A stretch of DNA of 64,000 nucleotides from Candidatus Gottesmanbacteria bacterium (GTDB taxonomy: Bacteria; Patescibacteriota; Microgenomatia; 2-02-FULL-39-11), in assembly GCA_016195685.1 (NCBI GenBank), contig JACPZE010000044.1, forward strand, positions 633 to 64,632. Reading direction: 5' to 3'. Positions 3,782 to 35,215 of this stretch are shown here, piece after piece. Below the pieces are notes generated by a model, which had not been told where the DNA came from, did no database searches, and saw only the letters and a list, made by a program, of their open reading frames with translations. Numbering within the stretch: position 1 is the first letter of the stretch; each line of letters begins with the position of its first letter. The translations under genes were made by a program, and so were the position numbers.

Positions 3782-4231
3782 TTATCGTGTCACTTGTATG
3801 GTTTCACTAAGCTCAGCGCCAGGAGCAGAAACAGTGATACGATTGTCAGTAGCGCTTTTCACTACCTTATAGTTGGTAGTGTAAGATGCTGTACAATCCG
3901 TAACGTCCCCACCTGTCACTAACGGATCTCTCGGTAGAGCAGCCAGATATTTGGTCACAACAGATGCGCAAATGTCTGCTTCTCCAGTGCCGTTTCCAAT
4001 TGTCAGCGCGCTGGTTGTAATCGCAGCTGGAAGCGCGCCTTTGTTGTCCGCAGCGTATTGGTGAACTGCATTTAACAGCGCATTCACGTCGCTTCTTCGT
4101 TTGGTGTTATTGGCTTGTGAAAATTGCCTGGCCGGATTGATTGCTACCAAAGCGATAGCAAAAAGAACTGCCAAAATGCCTATAACAACCAGGATTTCTA
4201 TCAGCGTAAATCCTTTCTGGTTTTTCCTCAT
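3782..4231 (-). CDS. pilA: Type IV pilin (class III signal peptide, major pilin candidate)
   Basis: N-terminus MRKNQKGFTLIEILVVIGILAVLFAIA has the canonical G-FTLIE prepilin cleavage/methylation motif. Confidence 0.85.
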   Translation of the reverse strand: MRKNQKGFTLIEILVVIGILAVLFAIALVAINPARQFSQANNTKRRSDVNALLNAVHQYAADNKGALPAAITTSALTIGNGTGEADICASVVTKYLAALPRDPLVTGGDVTDCTASYTTNYKVVKSATDNRITVSAPGAELSETIQVTR

Positions 4232-16233: not shown

Positions 16234-16236
16234 TTG

Positions 16237-16309
16237 TGGACCCGATCGGACTCGAACCGACCACCTTCGCAATGCGAATGCGACGCTCTACCAGATGAGC
16301 TACGGGCCC
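16237..16309 (-). tRNA. tRNA-Ala (anticodon CGC)
   Basis: Reverse complement folds as GGGCCCG-UA-GCUC-AUCUGGUA-GAGC-G-UCGCA-UUCGCAU-UGCGA-AGGUG-GUCGG-UUCGAGU-CCGAC-CGGGUCC-A. It has a G3:U70 pair; CCA is not encoded. Confidence 0.85.
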
Positions 16310-16414: not shown

Positions 16415-17110
16415 ATGAGATATAAAAATAATATTATTGCAAAAGCTAAAAAATTAAGAATGAGAGGTAAGACCTATACCGAAATTAAAAAGTATTTTAA
16501 ATTATCAATTCCCAAAAGTACCCTAGTTAGTTGGTTTAGAGATATAAAATTACCTAGGAATTATCCAGAGCGAATACGGAAATTAAACTTGGAGAATTTA
16601 AAAAAAGCAAGATTATTGCACATAAAAAAGAGTTTTGAGAGGAGAAAGAAATTACTAAAAACATATAAAGAAAAGAATAATGGTTTGATTAAAAAAGCGT
16701 CTGAAGTGGGCTATGCAAAAATTGGATTATCGATGCTCTGGTTAGGGGAAGGATCAAAGCAAAGAGGAGTTTTTAGAGTAGGCAGCTCAGATCCTAGAAT
16801 AGTTAAATTATTTTTGTGGTTTATTAAAAAATGTTACCAATTTGACTTATCAAAGGTCAGATGTACTCTGCAATGTAGAGCAGATCAAAATATACCTGAG
16901 CTAGAAAAATATTGGATAAATATTACAAATATTCCCAAAAGATTATTTTACAAAGCAAGAATTGATCCGAGGACAATTGGTAAACAAACAATTAATAAAG
17001 AATATAAAGGTGTATTAAGAGTAGATTATTTTGACGTTAAAATTCAGGACGAAATGGCAGTCATAGCTGATATGTTATATAATCAAACTTTACCAGGGCC
17101 CGAAGTTTAA
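16415..17110 (+). CDS. Hypothetical HTH-domain protein, possibly a degenerate LAGLIDADG-like C-terminal domain
   Basis: N-terminal resolvase/IS30-type HTH (RMRGKTYTEIKKYFKLSIPKSTLVSWFRDI). The C-terminal LSMLWLGEGSK...VFRV is a weak LAGLIDADG-like pattern. The ORF 3' end overlaps the downstream tRNA by 15 nt. Confidence 0.45.
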   Translation: MRYKNNIIAKAKKLRMRGKTYTEIKKYFKLSIPKSTLVSWFRDIKLPRNYPERIRKLNLENLKKARLLHIKKSFERRKKLLKTYKEKNNGLIKKASEVGYAKIGLSMLWLGEGSKQRGVFRVGSSDPRIVKLFLWFIKKCYQFDLSKVRCTLQCRADQNIPELEKYWINITNIPKRLFYKARIDPRTIGKQTINKEYKGVLRVDYFDVKIQDEMAVIADMLYNQTLPGPEV

Positions 17111-17168
17111 AAGGTTGAACATCTCGATGGCATCGAGAAGGCAAGGGGTTCGATTCCCCTCGGGTCCA
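17096..17168 (+). tRNA. tRNA-Ala (anticodon GGC), atypical A8
   Basis: Folds as GGGCCCG-AA-GUUU-AAAAGGUU-GAAC-A-UCUCG-AUGGCAU-CGAGA-AGGCA-AGGGG-UUCGAUU-CCCCU-CGGGUCC-A. It has a G3:U70 pair. Position 8 is A rather than the conserved U. Confidence 0.7.
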
Positions 17169-17246
17169 CAAATTAAAATGCGAGCTGTTGTAATGGATTC
17201 ATTTTCACTATGATTCAAAAAAAGGAGGTTCCCCAAGTCCTCTCTC

Positions 17247-18763
17247 TTGCCTCAAATTTTTATTGGTGACAGATGGAAGAAAATAGTACTTTTCATTGTA
17301 TTTTTTAATCTTTTTCTCGCATCATGGTATTTCATACAGGGAGATCTGAATTTTAACACAGATATTGCCAGAGACTTTTTATTATTAGAGGACCTCAAAC
17401 AAAAAAAAGTTGTGCTCATCGGTGCTCGTGCAGGACCAGCCGGTTTTTTCCATGGTCCGGCCTGGATGTATCTGAATCTTCCTATTTATATACTCGGTAA
17501 TGGGAATCCAGTTGTTGTCGGATGGTTTTGGATAGCTCTTACAATTGGATTTCTTTTTTACAGTTTTAAAATTGCAAAAAAAATATTCGATGAAAAACTG
17601 CTTACGTTTATATTCTTTTTATGTCCTGTTATCTTATTCATTTTACCTGGGCATACTCCCATCAATATATGGGGATGATGCTGATGCCTCTTTTTTTCTA
17701 TACATTTATTCAATATATAAAGACTTTAAACGCTAAATATCTGGCATCAAATGTTTTTCTTGGTGGGATGCTTATCCAGTTTGAAATTGCCTACGGAGGC
17801 CCCCTTTCTTTTATCTTTTTGCTCTTTGTACTTTTGAAAAATAAAAAATTCCTGCATATTTTATTATTTGGACTTATTCTTATTCCACTTTCAACTTATA
17901 TTATGTTTGATCTCCGTCATAATTTTATGTTGCTTAAGAGTCTTCAAGTTTACATGAAAGGTAATCCACAGGAGCATTACGTAAGTATTCTTAGTATTAT
18001 AAAAAACCGCTTCGAATACATGACTTCTTCAGCAGTACCATTGTTATGGGATCTGCCAAATTCTAATAAAATATTAGCTGTTCTTGTTTTGGGGTTTCTG
18101 TTAAAGCTTGCTTCTTTTAATAAAGTAGATAATAAATATAAATATTTTTTCTATTTTTTCTTCGGATACTTTCTTTTTAGTTTAACCAACAGATACTATC
18201 TACTTTCACAGCATTTCCTTGGATTTATTCCAATTGTCATTATGATGATTGCTTCTTTGGTTACCTCCCGTTACGCAAAATATATCGTGATATTATTTTT
18301 ATTTATTATGCTAAATAATGAAGTTGAAGCAATAAAATTTGTTGCAGCATCAAATAATATTATTGGATTTGCAGAAAGGAGCTGGAAATTTTACGATACG
18401 CTTTCCCAAAAAGCGTTTACTGCTGGTTCTGAAAAAGAGTTTGGATATTTTGTGTGGACTCCAGATAAATTTGCGTATTCCCCTCGTTATGCCATGGTGT
18501 ATGGACAAAAAACACATCCCGATAAAATAGCATATTCCTTTACCAAAAAGCCTGTTACTTATCTAGTTATGGCTCCTCCTCCCAAAGAAGATCCATGGGT
18601 AGATGGTAAATTTTGGAAAGTACACTCGATAGTGATCGATAAGAAACCAGTCAGTGTAATTTCTTTTCCAAATGGGTATCGGATAGACCGATATGAATTG
18701 ACAGATAAAGAAGTTGCTACTCCATTTGATCCGACTCAGGATATGGGTATCCACTTTCGATGA
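17247..18763 (+). pseudogene. GT-C (GT39/ArnT-like) membrane glycosyltransferase split by a frameshift near 17594-17678 (pseudogene, sequencing error or programmed shift)
   Basis: Two overlapping ORFs (17247..17678 and 17621..18763) in different frames. Both are polytopic membrane sequence, and DIARDFLLLED is a GT39-like motif. An A8 homopolymer lies at 17576-17583. Confidence 0.45.
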
Positions 18764-18873: not shown

Positions 18874-20052
18874 CTAAAGTAGAAACTGTGCAGGAGAAAT
18901 CGAGGGGGTAGGTTCAGTATAATTTCCACTCATATCTGTCAGAACTTTATCAGGAGTAAGTGCGTAATTATATATACGTACCTCATCAATGATTCCGTTA
19001 TAAATATAGTTACCCCCGGCTCTGGATCCAATATTAGGAAAAACGTCGTTTTGAATTCCATCCTTCAGACTATCTACACTAATGTTTGATAGTTGTTCTT
19101 TTCCATCTAGGTATATTTTTACTCCTTGGGCTTTGCTAGATCCATCATACGTCATAGCTACATGATGCCAGAGATTATTATTTACCGGCGTCTGCCCGTA
19201 AACATAGATGGCATTATCGGACCAGGTGTTGATTAAATATACTCCCAGCTGGTTATTCTTGTTTATAAAAAATTCATACCCTCGATTTCCATGTTCATTC
19301 TCCATTTTGGAAAATATTGTACTTTCCTTATCCGTTTCTGCATACTTGATCCAAGATTCTATGGTAAAAGGGTTTGTCCTTTCAAAACTAAAATTTAGCT
19401 TATTACTAACCCAAATTGAACTATCCCATCCATTGAAAAGCCTCGCTTTCCCTATTTTGCCTGTGGTAAAAACGGTGCTTGTTGAACCGCTGATATTATT
19501 ATTCCCTGACATATCATATGCAGTGATCAAGTCTTTATCACTATCAAATGGCCAGTAAGCAACAAGTTGCGGAGGTTTCATTGGAGGAGGTTTGAGTGTA
19601 GGTGTGGGTAAATTCCGAATCAAAAAATCAGGTACAGTATACTCAATACAATCATACCCTTTCTTATGTTTCCACTGATCGTAATAAGAGGATGGGTAAG
19701 AATACCTGTCACTGATTGTATCATTAGAATCTGTAGAAAAATCGGTGCACAGTTTATACCCTTTGTCATTCAAAACAATATAATCATAATCTTTTCTTGT
19801 TTTTGGATCTTTAATCGCTACCTTTGATTTTAAATCTGTAAGTTGATTCGGTAATTTATAATTCGTGCTGAAGAACTTTTCTATCTCATACCTTATACTG
19901 CCAAAATCACTTAATCTGGTATTGTCGAATGATTTATCTCTTTGTGCAAACGGATTACCGACAATTGTTAAACCCAAAAGGACGACCGTAAATACGAGTA
20001 TTCCCAAGAATCCAATAAAAATATAATAATTACGCATTTGCATTCCTGTCAT
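18874..20052 (-). CDS. Membrane-anchored LamG (concanavalin A-like lectin) domain protein with a pilin-like N-terminal helix
   Basis: N-terminal TM with a pilin-like region following the TM (DNTRLSDFGSIRYEIEKFF) but no G-FTLIE motif. C-terminal LamG region KIGKARLFNGWDSSIWV...NNLWHHVAMTYDGSS...IDEVRIYNYALTPDKV. Confidence 0.65.
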   Translation of the reverse strand: MTGMQMRNYYIFIGFLGILVFTVVLLGLTIVGNPFAQRDKSFDNTRLSDFGSIRYEIEKFFSTNYKLPNQLTDLKSKVAIKDPKTRKDYDYIVLNDKGYKLCTDFSTDSNDTISDRYSYPSSYYDQWKHKKGYDCIEYTVPDFLIRNLPTPTLKPPPMKPPQLVAYWPFDSDKDLITAYDMSGNNNISGSTSTVFTTGKIGKARLFNGWDSSIWVSNKLNFSFERTNPFTIESWIKYAETDKESTIFSKMENEHGNRGYEFFINKNNQLGVYLINTWSDNAIYVYGQTPVNNNLWHHVAMTYDGSSKAQGVKIYLDGKEQLSNISVDSLKDGIQNDVFPNIGSRAGGNYIYNGIIDEVRIYNYALTPDKVLTDMSGNYTEPTPSISPAQFLL

Positions 20053-20701
20053 CTTTAATTTGATAAATGTAATAGCTAAAAATAATACTGCTTATTGCTA
20101 AAGTTACCAGCAGATGAAGTATGAAATTGGATGTAATGTTACCATTTAGTATTGTATAGACTGTAGAGATAATCTTGTATATAAATATGAGGAATGTCAC
20201 TACAAGAGTAAAATAAATTAGCATCTTTCTCGGCATTAAAGTTCTCAATATCGGATTTTCTATAGTCTTTCTAGTAATCCGTAAAAAGAAAAATGCAAAT
20301 AGTAGATAAGAGACAATTAGTGCTGCTAGATAAGCCCGTATAAGCGTTTGAAGAAACAAAGAAAAATAATCTTTAACACTATTAGGAGGTACTGCAAGAA
20401 CCCATTTGTCTATAAAAGCATGAAGCATCAATCCGAGCGAAGTAGCTAAAACATAAAGACTGATAAACATCAGTATATGTTCAAAAGTATCCCAATCCCA
20501 CATACTATTGTGTAAATTAATGGTTATATTATTATTAGAATTTGGCGGAACAGGAATTGCGGGTTGAACTTCATCTGTGAACCCTTTTTTAATTTCTTCT
20601 TCCTCCCAACCGACTTTAAGTAGAGAAGCAATAATTTGTTTCTTCGGGATTTTTTGTAATTTTGCCAGCTTTATATAATTGGTAATTGCTTCTTGTACCA
20701 T
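20030..20701 (-). CDS. Hypothetical 4-TM membrane protein, probably co-transcribed with the LamG protein (23-nt overlap)
   Basis: ORF with four hydrophobic segments and a cytoplasmic N-terminal domain. No family recognised. Confidence 0.55.
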   Translation of the reverse strand: MVQEAITNYIKLAKLQKIPKKQIIASLLKVGWEEEEIKKGFTDEVQPAIPVPPNSNNNITINLHNSMWDWDTFEHILMFISLYVLATSLGLMLHAFIDKWVLAVPPNSVKDYFSLFLQTLIRAYLAALIVSYLLFAFFFLRITRKTIENPILRTLMPRKMLIYFTLVVTFLIFIYKIISTVYTILNGNITSNFILHLLVTLAISSIIFSYYIYQIKDDRNANA

Positions 20702-20742
20702 TTATATCTACTATAAACTGGATTCAGAAGAAATGTCAATTT

Positions 20743-21114
20743 TTAAATTGTTGCATTACTATAAGCAAGCGGAAATTGCTGAAAAATAATCCTCCATTCC
20801 CTGAGTGTCTGAACACATCCATCTACAATCGAGTTCGAAAGAATGAAACGATAGTCCACATTTGTTGATGCGGAAGCCGCAATATCATTGATTATCTTGA
20901 ATGGAAGCCCTAAACTTGGGTTCGAAAAGCCATCAATATTAAAGATTACTCCTTTTGGGAAAATTAGCCTCTGGTATTTTGTCTTCGCTTCATAAAGAGC
21001 GTCATACCAAGCTAATTCTGGGGTTCTAATAAATGCAGTACCAAAATTAAGAAGTGCGTCTATCTCAAGCTCTTCTGTATAAGTCTCATTCAGGCTCATT
21101 TTGGCAAGAGTCAA
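20743..21114 (-). CDS. Hypothetical protein (123 aa) with a paralogous C-terminal fragment at 23338..23514
   Basis: ORF; its C-terminal 27 codons are conserved at the amino-acid level in a second copy 2.5 kb downstream. Confidence 0.45.
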   Translation of the reverse strand: MTLAKMSLNETYTEELEIDALLNFGTAFIRTPELAWYDALYEAKTKYQRLIFPKGVIFNIDGFSNPSLGLPFKIINDIAASASTNVDYRFILSNSIVDGCVQTLREWRIIFQQFPLAYSNATI

Positions 21115-21119
21115 TTTCT

Positions 21120-21293
21120 GTTCTCCTCGGCGATCTTAATGATGACGGGAAGGTGGACATCTTTGATTATAACCTCGTCATTACCAATTTTGGAAAAACT
21201 CATACTCCCAGAACGCTAAGCAGGGATGCAAACGGTGTTGCCAAAGTCGACATTTTTGATTATAATCAAGTGGTAACGTATTTTGGCACATGA
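21120..21293 (+). pseudogene. Orphan dockerin module fragment (two Ca-binding repeats) with no catalytic or signal region
   Basis: DLNDDGKVDIFDYNLVITNFGK...DANGVAKVDIFDYNQVVTYFG. GC-rich relative to its surroundings. It ends 3 nt before the next gene's ATG. Confidence 0.4.
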
Positions 21294-21296
21294 GCA

Positions 21297-22607
21297 ATGG
21301 ATCTTTTGAAGCACATCATTACAACTTTCGTACTCCTATTACTCCTGCGACCTCCAGTTGTGTTTGCCCAGTCATCGTCACTTCTTACCCTTATCAACAG
21401 TGGTAAATCACTCATGTTCATTGGCGCCCACGCCGACGACGCAAACATTGCAGCGCCACTTCTCGTCCGCGGCTGTGTGGCTAAAAAATCAAAGTGTACC
21501 ATTGTGTCGATTGACCGGGCAAAATCGCCAGACGGAACCCAAGTTGATACTGAGTTTCGCACCTATACGTATCTCCTCAATACGAACGGCGTTGGCTTGG
21601 GATATCCATCTGGTACGCAGGGGGCGGGATTTGATGGTAATCCAGAGATTGTTATTGCAAACTGGAAGGCCATAGGTGACGTTGAAGGTGATATTTTAGC
21701 ACTTATTAATCAAGAAAAACCTGATGTCGTTATCACGCAGGAACCGACTCACGGGGTCTATGGGCACCCAGATCATCGCGCCATTGGCAGGGTTGTCACC
21801 AATGTCTTTCAAAAGAACAGTATTAATGCTTACCTCTACTATCAAATCGTCCGTTACTCATCGATTTTAGGTGGTAATCTTGACCCATTGCCTATCACCG
21901 ATACCATTGACGAACGTGATCGACTACCCGAGCTCAATAATGAAACGCCGTGGAATACTGCCTTAGGCGCACTGAGAACGATCCGTTTCGACCCAGGCTT
22001 TTTCGATTTAATTGCCTCTATCCCATCAGACGAGCAAATAAGTTGGAATCGGCTCGTGCAAACACCACAACAACCAGAAACCAGTCCAACACCAACAAGC
22101 GCCCCGACAGCTACGTCCATTCTTCTGCCGGCAACCACCCCGACGAGCATTCCAACTCCAGGCGCAGGTATCAGCCTAACCCCCACACCTGCCTATTTTC
22201 CTGACGATATCAATCATGATGGAAAAGTCGATATCTTCGACTATAATCTCCTAGTCACCGACTTTGGCAAGACAGGTTCCCCAGGTTTTTCAAAAGCAGA
22301 TTTAAACAATGACGGTAAAGTGGATATGTCAGATTTTAATATATTTATGGCTAGCGTTAAAAATCAACTATCAGTTTCTCCTACACTCATCTTAGCTCCT
22401 ACGCCAACCTATATTCCGACGATAATTCCTTCTCACACGGTATCCTTAACATCATGTGCATATAAACCCAATGGTGCAATTTGCATTGTAAATAACCAAG
22501 CAGGAGTCTGCAGCCATCACCAGTGTATTCCTCCTAATCATCCCCAACCGACTTCACCACCTGTAGACTGTGATTCACCAAACTCACCTAAATATTGTAA
22601 TTATTAA
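21297..22607 (+). CDS. Secreted LmbE/PIG-L family (CE14) deacetylase with a C-terminal dockerin and a Cys-rich tail
   Basis: Signal peptide. GAHADDANIA and HGVYGHPDHRAIG are LmbE-like motifs. P/T-rich linkers. DDINHDGKVDIFDYNLLVTDFGK and DLNNDGKVDMSDFNIFM are dockerin repeats. The gene is clearly GC-richer than its flanks. Confidence 0.7.
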   Translation: MDLLKHIITTFVLLLLLRPPVVFAQSSSLLTLINSGKSLMFIGAHADDANIAAPLLVRGCVAKKSKCTIVSIDRAKSPDGTQVDTEFRTYTYLLNTNGVGLGYPSGTQGAGFDGNPEIVIANWKAIGDVEGDILALINQEKPDVVITQEPTHGVYGHPDHRAIGRVVTNVFQKNSINAYLYYQIVRYSSILGGNLDPLPITDTIDERDRLPELNNETPWNTALGALRTIRFDPGFFDLIASIPSDEQISWNRLVQTPQQPETSPTPTSAPTATSILLPATTPTSIPTPGAGISLTPTPAYFPDDINHDGKVDIFDYNLLVTDFGKTGSPGFSKADLNNDGKVDMSDFNIFMASVKNQLSVSPTLILAPTPTYIPTIIPSHTVSLTSCAYKPNGAICIVNNQAGVCSHHQCIPPNHPQPTSPPVDCDSPNSPKYCNY

Positions 22608-22616
22608 TGAATTAAT

Positions 22617-23282
22617 ATGTTGAAATTAAATCTTACAAAAAAATCATACACTACAGTGCTAATCTTACTTTTTCTTCTGGTGGGATTAGCCTCTACGGTG
22701 TATCTATCCATGTCATATCTGGATATCAGAAAGAAAGCATCATATTCCGGAGCAACACTTGAACTTATTCCAGCAAGTATCATTAAAAACACAGGGGATA
22801 CATTCACAGTGGGAGTAGCCGTAAACACAGGAGATGAGACTGTCTCTGGAGCAGATGTCCATATAATTTATGAGGCTGATAAACTTGAAGTTCAAAGTAT
22901 TACCCCCGGTAACTTTCTGCCTAATATCTTTTCAGCCGGAAACTTTGGAGGAGGTAATGCTTCAATTGCATTAGTCAGCCAACCCGATAAACCACAAAAA
23001 GGATCTGGTATATTAGCCTCTATCAATTTCAAAGTCTTATCTAGTACACCTACAGTCATAAATTTCTCCTCAAATACTAAGATAGCTGCAATAGGAAAGA
23101 CCACTAATGTACTTACCAGTACCCAGGCAGCTGTGATAAATACTCCTTTGGCCACCATCAGTTCTTCGTCTTTTGCTTCTCCTAGCAGCATAGTAACACC
23201 TTCAATTGTTTCACCAACCCTTGCTATTACTCCTACCCTTAAAGTTCCTAGCCCTACGTCTATCACACCAGGAGACGGATAA
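22617..23282 (+). CDS. Membrane-anchored cohesin-like domain protein with an S/T/P-rich C-terminus
   Basis: N-terminal TM anchor. ATLELIPASIIKNTGDTFTVGVAVNTGDETVSGADVHIIYEADKLEVQSITPGNF resembles the cohesin beta-sandwich pattern. Confidence 0.45.
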   Translation: MLKLNLTKKSYTTVLILLFLLVGLASTVYLSMSYLDIRKKASYSGATLELIPASIIKNTGDTFTVGVAVNTGDETVSGADVHIIYEADKLEVQSITPGNFLPNIFSAGNFGGGNASIALVSQPDKPQKGSGILASINFKVLSSTPTVINFSSNTKIAAIGKTTNVLTSTQAAVINTPLATISSSSFASPSSIVTPSIVSPTLAITPTLKVPSPTSITPGDG

Positions 23283-23337
23283 CTCTGATAGATTAATACC
23301 AGGGGGGGTAAGGAATAGAATCTTCTTCGGTACAAAT

Positions 23338-23514
23338 TACAGAGTGTAAACCAAATTTAGTGGATACTGCTGGAAAACAATCCTCCAATCCTTTAAAGTC
23401 TGTATCAAATCATCTATAATCTGGTTCGTAAGGACTAAACGATAGTCCACTGAAAAATTTCTGATGAAATTTTCCAGTGCAAGCACAATAAAGGTGATTT
23501 TTTCGGTGTAAACA
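23338..23514 (-). pseudogene. 5'-truncated paralog fragment of the 20743..21114 gene (C-terminal about 58 codons, no start)
   Basis: The minus-strand frame ...SVDYRLVLTNQIIDDLIQTLKDWRIVFQQYPL...* aligns with ...NVDYRFILSNSIVDGCVQTLREWRIIFQQFPL...* of the full gene. Nucleotide identity is about 75% over 82 nt, with conservative amino-acid substitutions. Confidence 0.5.
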
Positions 23515-23523
23515 CATTATTTT

Positions 23524-23558
23524 TTCTCACACAAGTAATTTCCCATAACTGATATATT
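23524..23558 (-). pseudogene. Duplicated remnant of the carbamoyltransferase 3' end (encodes ...ISVMGNYLCEKK*)
   Basis: 31/34 nt identical to 25475..25508, which encodes the genuine C-terminus ILVMGNYVCEK* of the carbamoyltransferase. The two copies flank the 615-aa gene as direct repeats. Confidence 0.55.
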
Positions 23559-23620
23559 ACCAAAACTTTATACGTCTTGAAAATGTTGACAATGCAGATT
23601 CTTATTCTTATTCTGGTTAT

Positions 23621-25468: not shown

Positions 25469-25470
25469 TA

Positions 25471-27279
25471 TTATTTCTCACACACGTAATTTCCCATCAC
25501 TAATATATCTATTCCGGATCTTTCCAAAGTTGAATAAGCGTCGGCAGGGGAGGCGACAATTGGTTCTCCACGCAGATTAAATGAGGTATTTAATACAAGT
25601 GGTACGCCTGTTTTTTTGTAAAAAGATTTTATCAATTGGTAGTAAAGAGGATTTTCCTTTTCATAAACTAGTTGAGGTCGAGCCGTATTATCTGCATGAT
25701 TTATGGCTGGTACTTTCTTTTGCCATTCTTTCTTGACTGGTACCACATACAACATGTAGCGAAGAGGATAGTGATTTTCTAATTTTAATTTACGGGTCCT
25801 GCCGCTTAGGTATCCCAAACTACGATACATCTTCGTTTGGGATCCCTCCTTCGCGTCACCCGTGGTTAAAATAGATGTATTCATAGCTGATAAATCAAAT
25901 ATCTTATCAGCATATTCTGCAAGTACAGAAGGGGCAAAAGGGCGGAAAGCTTCCCGGAATTTCACTTTTCTATTTATAATATCTTTCATTTTCAGGTTTC
26001 GGGCGTCTGCCAGGATACTTCTTGCTCCCAGCGCTCTTGGTCCCCATTCAAATCTTCCTTGCATCCAACCGATGACTCGGCCTTTTGATATTTTATCCGC
26101 GATAAAATCAACGATCTTTTTGTCATTTAATTTTTTAAATTTTGCTTTTTTCTCCTTCAAAAACTTCTCAATTTCCGGATTATCATATTGTTTTCCCAGA
26201 TAAGCGTGGGTCATCATTTTTCGATTGCCTTTATTTAAGACATGATGATATGCATATAAAGCCGCACCCATTGCTCCTCCAGAATCACCCGCTGCCGGTT
26301 GTACAAAAATATTTTTAAAGCCAGATTCTTTTAAGATCCGGTAATTAGCTACAGAGTTTAATGCTACACCACCTGCTAGGCACAGATTATCTGATTTAGT
26401 TTTGTTTCTTACATATTTGGCCATACCCAGAATCAATTCTTCTGTTACCAGCTGTACACTCGAAGCGATATCGGCTGGCCGTTTTTCTACCAGATGAGAT
26501 TGGTTCGGATCGATTGGACTTCCCAAGAGTTTTACCAATTTTTCAGAAAATGATTTTTTATCAGAGTACTGAAAAGAAAAATAGGAAAAGTCCAAAGAGA
26601 AACTGCCATCCGCAAGTTGCCGTACTGTTTTCCAGATTTTATCTGCATAGATAGGTTTGCCGTATGGAGCTAGACCCATGAGTTTCCATTCTCCTTCGTT
26701 TACCTCAAACCCCAAAAATGCAGTAAAAGCAGAATAAAAAAGTCCAAGAGATTGAGGAAAACGTATTTCGGAATTTAATCTGAGCTTGCTTCCCTCGCCA
26801 ACCCCAAATGATGAGGTGGTCCATTCGCCGACACCATCCAAAGTGAGAATCGCTGATTTTTTAAAAAGGGATGGATAAAAACAGCTGGCCGCATGGGATA
26901 AATGATGATCGCAAAAAAGTATTTTGGAAAGATCAACTTTTACATAAGATGAAATTTCCTGTTTTATCCAAAGTTTTTGTGTCAGCCAGACCCGAATACC
27001 CTCCCTAAAACTTGCATATGACAGGGGATAAGTTGATATTGCACTGATAAGCATGCGGTGAAACTTCCTGAAAGGTTTTTCATAAAATACTACATAATCT
27101 AAATCAGACTTGCTGACATGAGCAATCTCCAGGCAAAAATCAATCGCATTTTTGGGAAAAGACGAATCGTGTTTTTTACGGCTGAACCGTTCCTCTTCTG
27201 CTGCAGCTAAAACTTCTCCGTCTTTTAAAAGTACGGCAGCTGCGTCATGATAATAACAGGAAATTCCTAAGATATTCAT
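25471..27279 (-). CDS. Carbamoyltransferase (NodU/CmcH family)
   Basis: MNILGISCYYHDAAAVLLKDGEVLAAAEEERFSRKKHD and C-terminal PAINHADNTARPQLV...VLNTSFNLRGEPIV are family hallmarks. The start is set to the internal Met overlapping the upstream gene's stop. It carries a roughly 30-aa in-frame insertion from the palindromic element. Confidence 0.85.
   Translation of the reverse strand: MNILGISCYYHDAAAVLLKDGEVLAAAEEERFSRKKHDSSFPKNAIDFCLEIAHVSKSDLDYVVFYEKPFRKFHRMLISAISTYPLSYASFREGIRVWLTQKLWIKQEISSYVKVDLSKILFCDHHLSHAASCFYPSLFKKSAILTLDGVGEWTTSSFGVGEGSKLRLNSEIRFPQSLGLFYSAFTAFLGFEVNEGEWKLMGLAPYGKPIYADKIWKTVRQLADGSFSLDFSYFSFQYSDKKSFSEKLVKLLGSPIDPNQSHLVEKRPADIASSVQLVTEELILGMAKYVRNKTKSDNLCLAGGVALNSVANYRILKESGFKNIFVQPAAGDSGGAMGAALYAYHHVLNKGNRKMMTHAYLGKQYDNPEIEKFLKEKKAKFKKLNDKKIVDFIADKISKGRVIGWMQGRFEWGPRALGARSILADARNLKMKDIINRKVKFREAFRPFAPSVLAEYADKIFDLSAMNTSILTTGDAKEGSQTKMYRSLGYLSGRTRKLKLENHYPLRYMLYVVPVKKEWQKKVPAINHADNTARPQLVYEKENPLYYQLIKSFYKKTGVPLVLNTSFNLRGEPIVASPADAYSTLERSGIDILVMGNYVCEK
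25788..25870 (-). repeat. Palindromic RPE-like element, copy B, inserted in-frame inside the carbamoyltransferase
   Basis: tttACGGGTcctgccgcttaggtatcccaaactacgatacatcttcgtttgggatccctccttcgcgtcACCCGTgg. Translated in the gene frame it gives LTTGDAKEGSQTKMYRSLGYLSGRTRKLKLE with no stop. Confidence 0.75.
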
Positions 27280-27509
27280 CAGAATTGTTCTTTTAGTTCT
27301 TCTAAGGTATCGTTGTGTGTATTTTTTAAACTCCAAGTGGATACCGGGAGGGTTTTAAACCCGAGTTTGTCTTTCGTAAAAGTAAAAATAATTCCGAAAG
27401 GCAAAAGAATTGTAAAATAGAAGATAGACAGTATTACTTGCGCTTGGAATACTGCAATGCGGTGGGCGATTTTTTTCCATTTTTGCCAAATAGACTTTAT
27501 TATCTGCAT
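27279..27509 (-). CDS. Small membrane protein, SxtJ-like, in the carbamoyltransferase operon
   Basis: 76-aa ORF with 2 TM helices, immediately upstream of and overlapping the carbamoyltransferase start. Confidence 0.45.
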   Translation of the reverse strand: MQIIKSIWQKWKKIAHRIAVFQAQVILSIFYFTILLPFGIIFTFTKDKLGFKTLPVSTWSLKNTHNDTLEELKEQF

Positions 27510-33942: not shown

Positions 33943-34015
33943 AAATACAGAGCCTATTGACAATAAAATTACTTCAGAGTAATATTTGCTTCTCTGCCCC
34001 GATGGGGCATTTTTT

Positions 34016-35215
34016 ATGCTTAAATATCTTTTTATTATCTCTTTCTTTCTCGGATTGAGCCTCTTTTTATCTCCTGTAAAAGTCTCTGCAGAAGAAGTTT
34101 CCTGTATGGGAAAGCCAGCTACAATAGTTAACGATCTGGAAAATGTGGTTATCAATGGAACTGAGGGGGATGACGTAATTGTCAGTACCGCACAAAATGT
34201 TGATATTTATGGTAATGGTGGAAATGACACTATATGTGCCGCAGGAAAAGCAAGAATTTGGGGAGGAGATGGTGATGATAAAATCGATGGAGGGGGAGCA
34301 AGTGAAATCCATGGTGGTCCCGGTGACGATGTAATATTTGCTCACGCGGGCGCTGGAAATACAGGAACTATTAACAGTACAGAGGCATATAACGGAACAC
34401 CCGGAGTAAACTGTTTAGCCGGAACAGGAGTTGAAGACAGTAGCACGATTTATGGAGATGAAGGTAATGATATTTTAGTCGGATGTGGTGGGCATGATAT
34501 TTTAGATGGCGGTCCAGGTGTAGATGCAATATTTGGATATGGAGGTACTGATCTTCTTTACGGTGAGGATGGGAATGATTTGTTAGTAGGTAATGATGGT
34601 GATGATACGATTTACGGTGGTCCTGGTTTAAATACAATTTTGGGTGGAGGTGGAAACGATACAATTTATGGAGGAGATGATGGGAATTATATATATGGAG
34701 GAGAGGGGAATGATTCTCTTTTTGGGGGAAATGGCAATGATTATATATTTGGGGAAGCCGGTAATGATGAAATCTATGGTTATGGAGGGGATGATTATAT
34801 AATTGGAGGAGAGGGAGCAAATGTAATTGATGGTGGAACAGGATACAATAGATGTATGCAAGGTGATCCTATGTATAATTGCGTTGATCTTTTACATCCG
34901 CCAACCCCAACTCCTGCTCCTACAGATGAGCCTACACTTACGCCTACTATCACTATTACTCCTACAGTGACTCTTACTCCTGTACCTTTGGAGCCTACGC
35001 TTACCAGTACTCCTACTCCTGTAGTTCCTACACCCACAACGCGATTGCCAAGTCTAGTTCTACCAACAATAAATTGGACATTGCCTCAATTATGGTTATT
35101 ATCACCCACACCAACTATTGGAGGAGATAATGGTCCTACACCCACAGTACAACCTACACCTACTCAACCTAGTAGTTCAAATAGGTATAACAGGCCACCT
35201 TACCGTATTAACTAA
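34016..35215 (+). CDS. Secreted hemolysin-type calcium-binding (RTX) repeat protein with a P/T-rich C-terminus
   Basis: Signal peptide MLKYLFIISFFLGLSLFLSPVKVSA. Many GGxGxDxxx nonapeptide repeats (GNGGNDTI, GGDGDDKI, GGPGDDVI...). Confidence 0.7.
   Translation: MLKYLFIISFFLGLSLFLSPVKVSAEEVSCMGKPATIVNDLENVVINGTEGDDVIVSTAQNVDIYGNGGNDTICAAGKARIWGGDGDDKIDGGGASEIHGGPGDDVIFAHAGAGNTGTINSTEAYNGTPGVNCLAGTGVEDSSTIYGDEGNDILVGCGGHDILDGGPGVDAIFGYGGTDLLYGEDGNDLLVGNDGDDTIYGGPGLNTILGGGGNDTIYGGDDGNYIYGGEGNDSLFGGNGNDYIFGEAGNDEIYGYGGDDYIIGGEGANVIDGGTGYNRCMQGDPMYNCVDLLHPPTPTPAPTDEPTLTPTITITPTVTLTPVPLEPTLTSTPTPVVPTPTTRLPSLVLPTINWTLPQLWLLSPTPTIGGDNGPTPTVQPTPTQPSSSNRYNRPPYRIN

Follow-up and report, generated by a model that had tools for sequence, protein, structure and literature searches.

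A probable composite scar beside a truncated large serine recombinase gene in a Candidatus Gottesmanbacteria genome

Known examples of decayed or cis-mobilisable elements and of tandem accretion at one att site are CIME and the composite SCC arrays at rlmH. Integrons have as their hallmarks the tyrosine recombinase IntI, an attI site and cassettes bounded by attC. Large serine recombinases (LSRs) normally recombine attP with attB only (PMC3783163). Genomic islands of the Islander type are mostly produced by tyrosine integrases (PMC4383910). In the SSV1-type archaeal integrases and in mycobacteriophage BPs, attP lies within a reading frame and integration alters the encoded protein: SSV1 splits its int gene, while BPs shortens its repressor (PMC8371274; PMC4557955).

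The locus compared here with these systems belongs to a metagenome-assembled genome (MAG) of Candidatus Gottesmanbacteria. It was analysed in a 64-kb window, i.e. the whole stretch of 64,000 nucleotides, which is AT-rich with a mean GC content of 36.4%. The comparison suggests that positions 23337-23558 of this window probably represent a composite scar, adjoining a decayed LSR-type integrative element.

Layout of the locus

On its right side the locus is syntenic with relatives that are 63-67% identical, the shared genes being those of the carbamoyltransferase, DUF5989, NrtR and NAD synthesis (NadC). The 3' end of the carbamoyltransferase gene is the limit of this synteny, and gene order beyond it (downstream) is not kept in the relatives. 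The left flank comprises Rho, an M23 peptidase and two tRNA-Ala genes. The 8 kb between the flanks contain ORFans, surface-protein genes and the remnant of an LSR gene (Table 1); this stretch is compatible with a variable region, the relatives being too distant for the label of a hotspot. The 123-aa ORF and the carbamoyltransferase gene had been described as convergent in the first-pass annotation. Both are located on the minus strand (20743-21114 and 25471-27336) and are arranged in tandem. The true start of the carbamoyltransferase is probably at 27279.

Table 1. Coordinates of the features of the locus (positions in the window) and of the tail copies in contig L100
Feature	Position	Strand	Basis
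5'-truncated large serine recombinase gene (delta-LSR)	20743..21132	-	homologues, tblastn
D1 copy 1: tail X2, contiguous with the LSR body, body-tail junction unrecombined	20768..20859	-	repeat comparison
5'-truncated ORF with complete dockerin domain only	21126..21293	+	Pfam Dockerin_1, E 6e-5, from ORF residue 25
Cargo: gene of secreted PIG-L deacetylase-dockerin protein	21297..22607	+	Pfam; GC 44.9%
Cargo: gene of membrane-anchored cohesin-domain protein, 3' end convergent on tail X1	22617..23282	+	Pfam Cohesin, E 1e-11
D1 copy 2: tail-only relic X1, 37 codons plus stop, no LSR body upstream	23337..23450	-	repeat comparison, profile search
67-nt spacer from carbamoyltransferase relic to X1, plus 3 nt (23448-23450) of the X1 Val codon	23448..23517	-	palindrome
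D3 copy b: non-functional relic of the carbamoyltransferase end, last 12 codons plus stop (ISVMGNYLCEKK, stop)	23518..23557	-	
615-aa ORFan with N-terminal transmembrane helix	23621..25468	+	between the D3 copies
D3 copy a: functional carbamoyltransferase 3' end	25469..25508	-	
Intact carbamoyltransferase gene, first of the right-hand syntenic core	25471..27336	-	Pfam Carbam_trans_N, 1.8e-82; Carbam_trans_C, 8e-66
Tail copies in L100	1-55 (partial, cut by contig end), 1793-1900, 2245-2338, 2799-2905	one strand	

The dockerin/cohesin islet has a GC content of 44.9% over 1.5 kb, the highest sustained value in the window and ~2.4 sd above the mean, while isolated 500-nt windows elsewhere reach 47-48%; the excess lends modest support to the reading of the locus as an integrated element. 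The same shift in GC, together with the fact that the source is a metagenome-assembled genome, might be read as the sign of an assembly chimera in which the islet and its repeats come from mis-joined reads. This is hardly credible. Two independent Logan assemblies from different runs (L042 and L043) cover 19795-22525 and contain the junction between the LSR remnant and the dockerin ORF at 100% identity, and mis-joins are not to be expected from repeats as diverged as these (74% and 90%).

Several other features of the window were recorded. Between the tRNA-Ala genes at 16236-16309 (minus strand) and 17096-17169 (plus strand) lies a 231-aa ORF (16415-17110, plus strand), overlapping the start of the second tRNA gene. 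Its N-terminus includes an HTH-like stretch, and an 'LWLGEGSK' motif recalls the LAGLIDADG homing endonucleases; no Pfam match was obtained at 1e-3. A 143-aa ORF (17247-17678) and a 380-aa membrane ORF (17621-18763), both on the plus strand, overlap in different frames; they could be a single gene split by a frameshift or by an assembly error. The 409-aa protein encoded at 33986-35215 (plus strand) contains nine RTX calcium-binding repeats (HemolysinCabind, E 3e-41) and is another secreted or surface protein in a small genome.

The serine recombinase remnant and its tail

Homologues of the 123-aa ORF have 193-199 aa, and the ORF itself has no Pfam match. In contig L045, the ORF directly upstream of the homologue P0003 carries the Recombinase and zinc-ribbon motifs of an LSR. 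A reconstructed query of ~350 aa retrieved ~30 full-length proteins of ~510 aa with the domains PF00239, PF07508 and PF13408 at 46-61% identity, and the 123-aa ORF aligns to the last ~90 residues of these LSRs, i.e. to the part after the coiled coil. A phmmer search returned 125 representative hits, the longer of which are LSRs of ~510 aa aligned at residues ~410-510; most of the 125 are only 80-300 aa long, LSR fragments being very common in the family.

When full-length LSRs were used in tblastn, homology in the window was confined to 21132->20857, and P0007 alone gave 65% identity over 88 aa (E 5e-32). The PF00239 resolvase catalytic domain with the catalytic serine, present in the homologues P0007-P0034, is missing from the window, and so are the PF07508 Recombinase domain and the PF13408 zinc ribbon with its inserted coiled coil, which the homologues likewise possess. 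What is kept consists of the last ~90 residues of the conserved body and a native tail of 38 codons, X2 (20743-20859). The window contains no second LSR fragment, and neither such a fragment nor a B' arm was found to the left of X2.

By homology, the 123-aa ORF is thus shown to represent the last ~120 residues (3' ~390 nt) of an LSR gene for ~510 aa. The copy in the window is a clear homologue over the part that it keeps, yet it is a remnant and not a functional member of the family. This corrects the annotation of a 'hypothetical 123-aa protein'. It also overturns three statements of the first-pass annotation. No integrase was said to be present, and the ORF is an integrase fragment; the mobilising function was placed elsewhere or considered lost, and a truncated integrase sits at the end of the islet; the 123-aa gene was regarded as a targeted host gene with a rebuilt 3' end, and it is in fact the C-terminal remnant of the element's own LSR.

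The 5' end of the LSR gene is cut at ~21126-21132, head-to-head with the 5'-truncated dockerin ORF. One deletion took the first ~390 LSR codons, the intervening DNA and the 5' part of the dockerin-bearing gene. Broken LSR copies of the same clade occur in other contigs as well. In L044 (1-1075), the gene is cut upstream beside a gene for an IS30-type transposase. In L045 (1-1079), the part upstream of the zinc-ribbon end is in another frame and overlaps the downstream part by four bases, so that the LSR gene looks frameshifted.

The organisation of the family can be seen in three intact relatives (L046-L048), in which the LSR gene closes a block that also encodes an HTH regulator, DUF5659 and a Rep-like protein, opposite-strand cargo being located further upstream. 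A convergent tRNA gene overlaps the 3' end of the LSR gene in two of these, tRNA-Lys in L046 (9827-9899) and tRNA-Arg in L047 (11513-11587). The LSR body closes with a conserved Val codon, and the first base of this codon is exactly the 3'-terminal nucleotide of the tRNA (9827 in L046 and 11513 in L047). Translated tRNA sequence, G[FLVI]EP..., forms the end of ~25 of 28 full-length homologues. The window remnant continues for 37 codons after the Val, VDYRFILSNSIVDGCVQTLREWRIIFQQFPL..., and the same type of tail follows the Val in P0002 (L044); a diverged form of it is found on LSRs down to ~27% identity.

Copies of this tail differ from one another by synonymous and conservative changes (one Leu is encoded as ctc, tta and cta), their ORF is open for 33-47 codons, and the antisense frames across them are closed in most copies. 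These properties indicate that the tail is a genuine C-terminal segment of the protein, and sequence comparison in this way shows the ~35-aa stretch after the Val of the remnant to be the native C-terminal tail of the LSR family. A convergent protein gene as the target lying under the tails was rejected because the antisense ORFs are closed in most copies. In L046-L048, a search of the 8-10 kb upstream of the LSR revealed no tail copy, and scans of IMG/VR with the LSR C-terminal alignment and with both repeat patterns gave no match. The conserved Val codon is a nucleotide-precise candidate attachment point for this clade of LSRs from bacteria of the CPR (Candidate Phyla Radiation), which mostly target tRNA 3' ends, and could aid the prediction of att sites for these enzymes.

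The gene for tRNA-Ala(ggc) at 17096-17169 was considered as the original attB of a block at 17.2-23.5 kb. It is convergent with the LSR remnants, but neither a supporting LSR remnant nor a tRNA fragment was found, and this candidate was rejected.

The two pairs of direct repeats

The first pair, D1, is a direct repeat of 92-93 nt with 74-77% nucleotide identity between 20768-20859 and 23359-23450, which is above chance; in tblastn of the 123-aa ORF against the window, the relation is seen as 59% identity over 32 aa (E 1.7e-11). The conserved Val codon supplies the first base of the repeat (GTGGACTATCGTTT, the same 14 nt in the two copies), and in the 41 nt upstream of the copy the nucleotide identity falls to 15%. 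No LSR body was detected upstream of X1 or of any other tail-only copy, either by nhmmer with an LSR-body profile, for which the positive control scores 1.6e-69, or by Smith-Waterman alignment with shuffled controls. The D1 copies bracket the dockerin/cohesin islet, as had been noticed in the first-pass annotation. The latter had also described X1 as a truncated copy of the 20743..21114 gene covering the last 58 codons; its extent is 37 codons plus stop.

At the nucleotide level, X1 is 74% identical to X2, 77% to the tail in contig L099 and 73% to the tails in contig L100. As X1 is no closer to X2 than to the copies in these contigs, the two copies of the window are not an in-situ duplication and are independent members of a dispersed family. 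The earlier idea of a duplication made in place fails on the same figures, the copies being 26% diverged and equidistant to those of unrelated contigs (72-77%).

A palindrome with a 14-bp stem, CACTGGAAAATTTC AT CAGAAATTTTTCAGTG, occupies 23448-23479 (minus strand), with the Val codon of X1 as the end of its right arm. The LSR-attached copy has a smaller inverted repeat, TCCGCAT CAACAA ATGTGGA (20855-20874), at the corresponding position. With z-scores of -2.6 and -2.0 the folding signal is modest, and the palindromes account for it, on which grounds a reading of the repeats as non-coding RNA was rejected. Searches for tRNA and Rfam families in the region and in L044, L045, L099 and L100 did not reveal any RNA gene underlying the repeats.

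Tails without an LSR body were also obtained for P0137 and P0108 in an exhaustive search of representatives. The copy in L099 (JGI 3300045016; 213-326) is 77% identical to X1 in DNA and 71% in protein. It is preceded by unrelated GC-rich DNA with a GC-rich hairpin and followed directly by opposite-strand genes of GmrSD (GmrSD_N) and type I/IIG restriction-modification systems, i.e. by defence cargo. L100 (Logan SRR22388302; 1-4088) bears at least four tails on one strand within 4 kb, as well as degenerate tail starts at 458-497 and 4061-4088. No LSR body is present upstream of the L100 tails. One or two unrelated genes, in most cases on the other strand, come after each tail, and copies a and c share the left arm TTTTAGGCTGNTATAA. 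L100 looks like a cassette-type array of recombination sites. An integron was considered on account of this array and rejected, the recombinase being of the serine type and the repeats being protein-coding tails and not attC hairpins.

The start nucleotide is the same as that of X1 in three of the copies in L099 and L100; of the others, the third L100 copy begins ~12 nt further in and the fourth is cut by the contig end. The X1 breakpoint matches both the tRNA boundary of L046 and L047 and the tail starts of L099 and L100, while searches yielded no intact element complete at both ends. By analogy, a breakpoint recurrent to the nucleotide and coincident with the tRNA boundary is read as a site-specific crossover. 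X1 could otherwise be the leftover of a second LSR pseudogene after random deletion, with no att meaning, so that two decayed elements would lie side by side. LSR fragments are indeed very common in the family, and the other LSR of the window was truncated by an ordinary deletion. This explanation is nevertheless unlikely, since X1 breaks off at nucleotide 1 of the Val codon, the point at which the tRNA genes of L046 and L047 and the tails of L099 and L100 start as well, and a chance endpoint at that position in a gene of 1.5 kb has a probability of ~1/1500 per case.

The second pair, D3, is a direct repeat of 40 nt with 36/40 positions identical, also above chance. A 22-nt core occurs in the 64 kb only at the two D3 sites, with 0.01 matches expected from shuffles. 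The duplicate of the carbamoyltransferase 3' end, given earlier as 35 nt, is hence confirmed at this greater length, and its two copies do bracket the 615-aa gene as claimed. The repeat corresponds to the last 12 codons plus stop of the carbamoyltransferase, ILVMGNYVCEK and stop in the gene versus ISVMGNYLCEKK and stop in the relic. The latter has S and L where 13 relatives have L/A and V/I, plus an extra Lys codon; judged by these codons, it is a decaying copy. The homology between the D3 copies is bounded precisely by the stop codon and by codon -13.

The 1.95-kb insert between the D3 copies holds only the 615-aa ORFan, at a native-like GC content of 32%, and includes no recombinase or mobility gene. 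A promoter-like site was predicted before the ORFan at 23586-23614 by a promoter scan. The 615-aa protein has no Pfam or PHROG match, and its sole match in the databases is itself (HY029_06095, Candidatus Gottesmanbacteria MAG). Among ~60 carbamoyltransferase loci of relatives, none has a homologue of the 615-aa protein within 10 kb, and none has a second carbamoyltransferase 3' end or any downstream gene of the window. Exact-protein look-ups of the carbamoyltransferase (with two start codons) and of the 615-aa protein returned no contigs. Scans of genome_contigs and metagenome_contigs yielded no relative above 67% protein identity (the closest carbamoyltransferase loci being at 63-67%), and metagenome_contigs contained no relative of the DUF5671 neighbour; among relatives this distant, no empty site came to light.

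D3 is 67 nt away from the putative crossover at X1. This is too far for an LSR site of 40-50 bp, and D3 is consequently treated as a separate event. It might have arisen by homology-facilitated illegitimate recombination with DNA of a related strain, which would have brought in the 615-aa gene together with the present carbamoyltransferase 3' end through one crossover in the gene and an illegitimate joint 40 nt before the old stop. The insert without a mobility gene and with native-like GC, the homology that stops exactly at the stop codon and at codon -13, and the relaxed constraint in the relic are all in line with such an event. No donor arrangement is known, however, and a 615-aa homologue occurs at 0 of ~60 loci and nowhere else. 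For D3 this origin is tentative, and somewhat less probable than not.

From the standpoint of the Islander principle, the D3 pair presents a regenerated target plus a displaced 3' fragment, while the block with the 615-aa gene contains no integrase gene inside the island. On that principle (PMC4383910), a further reading of the locus is a live option for D3 and the carbamoyltransferase, namely that two cassettes integrated site-specifically into the 3' ends of two convergent host genes, rebuilding the ends and displacing the fragments, with an integrase encoded elsewhere. Direct repeats that contain the 3' end of a gene do flank both blocks. For the half concerning the 123-aa gene this reading is refuted, as the ORF is an LSR fragment and not a host gene. 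Moreover, the ORF and the carbamoyltransferase gene are co-directional, the position of the displaced fragment, upstream of the complete copy, is not the topology that regeneration of a 3' end would give, and the D1 copies are as far from each other as from those of foreign contigs at 26% divergence. Taken as a whole, the two-cassette scheme is very unlikely.

Proposed history and relation to known systems

The favoured reading, a composite scar beside a decayed LSR element, relies for its att assignment on analogy and on recurrent breakpoints. As is usual for attL and attR, direct repeats are present at both ends of the islet in the form of the D1 copies, one of them contiguous with the integrase remnant. 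In the proposed scheme, attP would lie inside the LSR reading frame at the boundary of body and tail. On integration, the native tail would be left behind as B-o-P' (attL) at the far end of the element, and the LSR body would become fused to the target. X1 may accordingly represent the P' arm of an attL-like junction, with the 67-nt spacer and the old carbamoyltransferase end as its host-side (B) arm. The dockerin and cohesin genes would be cargo to the left of X1, convergent on it as in L099 and L100, and the truncated LSR with tail X2 would be the other end of the element.

A simple single integration does not fit, since the LSR remnant keeps a tail of the native type and not target sequence. 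Most probably, the element inserted at the tail site of an earlier element or recombined with it, by serial accretion and not by entry at a virgin attB. With LSR chemistry restricted to attP and attB, entry at such an older tail site would require homologous recombination within the tail or an atypical LSR reaction. D3 would be a second scar, left by the event that placed the 615-aa ORFan between the carbamoyltransferase and its old 3' end. This event could have been the arrival of a since decayed element that rebuilt the gene end, or recombination of foreign DNA anchored in the carbamoyltransferase gene.

What was supposed to be an insertion hotspot without an integrase is the recognisable wreck of an integrated mobile element with a serine integrase, and a decayed element of this sort with att scars is of an already-known kind. 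It is not likely that anything at the locus is mobile today. The earlier proposal that the repeats are integration scars bracketing foreign blocks holds in its general idea; its convergent ancestral junction and its host 123-aa gene do not.

An attP inside the integrase reading frame with a swappable tail may be new. It can be supposed further that a clade of CPR serine integrases with an in-frame attP swaps a tail of ~35 residues and reuses tail sites of ~100 nt as landing pads, giving rise to single-gene arrays such as L100 (at least 4-6 sites in 4 kb), with the window as a two-site example. This broader generalisation, drawn from the sequences, is speculative and quite unlikely as it stands. 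If integration does swap the C-terminal tail of the integrase, it would constitute a testable switch, and the reuse of tail sites is testable too.

Among described systems, the closest are the LSR prophages and integrative elements of the phiC31, Bxb1, A118 and SPbeta type (PMC3783163). The homologues of the remnant share their Resolvase, Recombinase and zinc-ribbon domains, the integrase gene is the terminal one beside the attachment site, and the sites are short. The window differs in keeping only the last ~120 residues, and the clade differs in that the crossover apparently falls inside the integrase reading frame, so that integration would swap the last ~35 residues; in the literature searched, no description of an LSR with a crossover inside its own reading frame was found. 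With the Islander islands (PMC4383910), the intact LSR relatives have in common that they abut the 3' ends of tRNA-Lys and tRNA-Arg genes, and the D3 pair, with an intact end and a 40-nt relic, has the look of a regenerated target with a displaced fragment. In contrast to these islands, D1 is the integrase's own tail and not a fragment of a target gene, and there is no tRNA at the window junctions.

As in CIME and SCC arrays, att-like repeats flank blocks of the window without a working recombinase, several scars lie within ~100 nt, and L100 is an array of at least four such sites. The repeats of the window are diverged protein-coding tails, unlike the near-identical att cores of those arrays, and the locus bears no sign of mobilisation in trans. 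The LSR clade resembles SSV1 and BPs in its attP, which putatively lies inside a reading frame. Unlike these tyrosine-recombinase systems, it would exchange only the short C-terminal tail of a serine recombinase.
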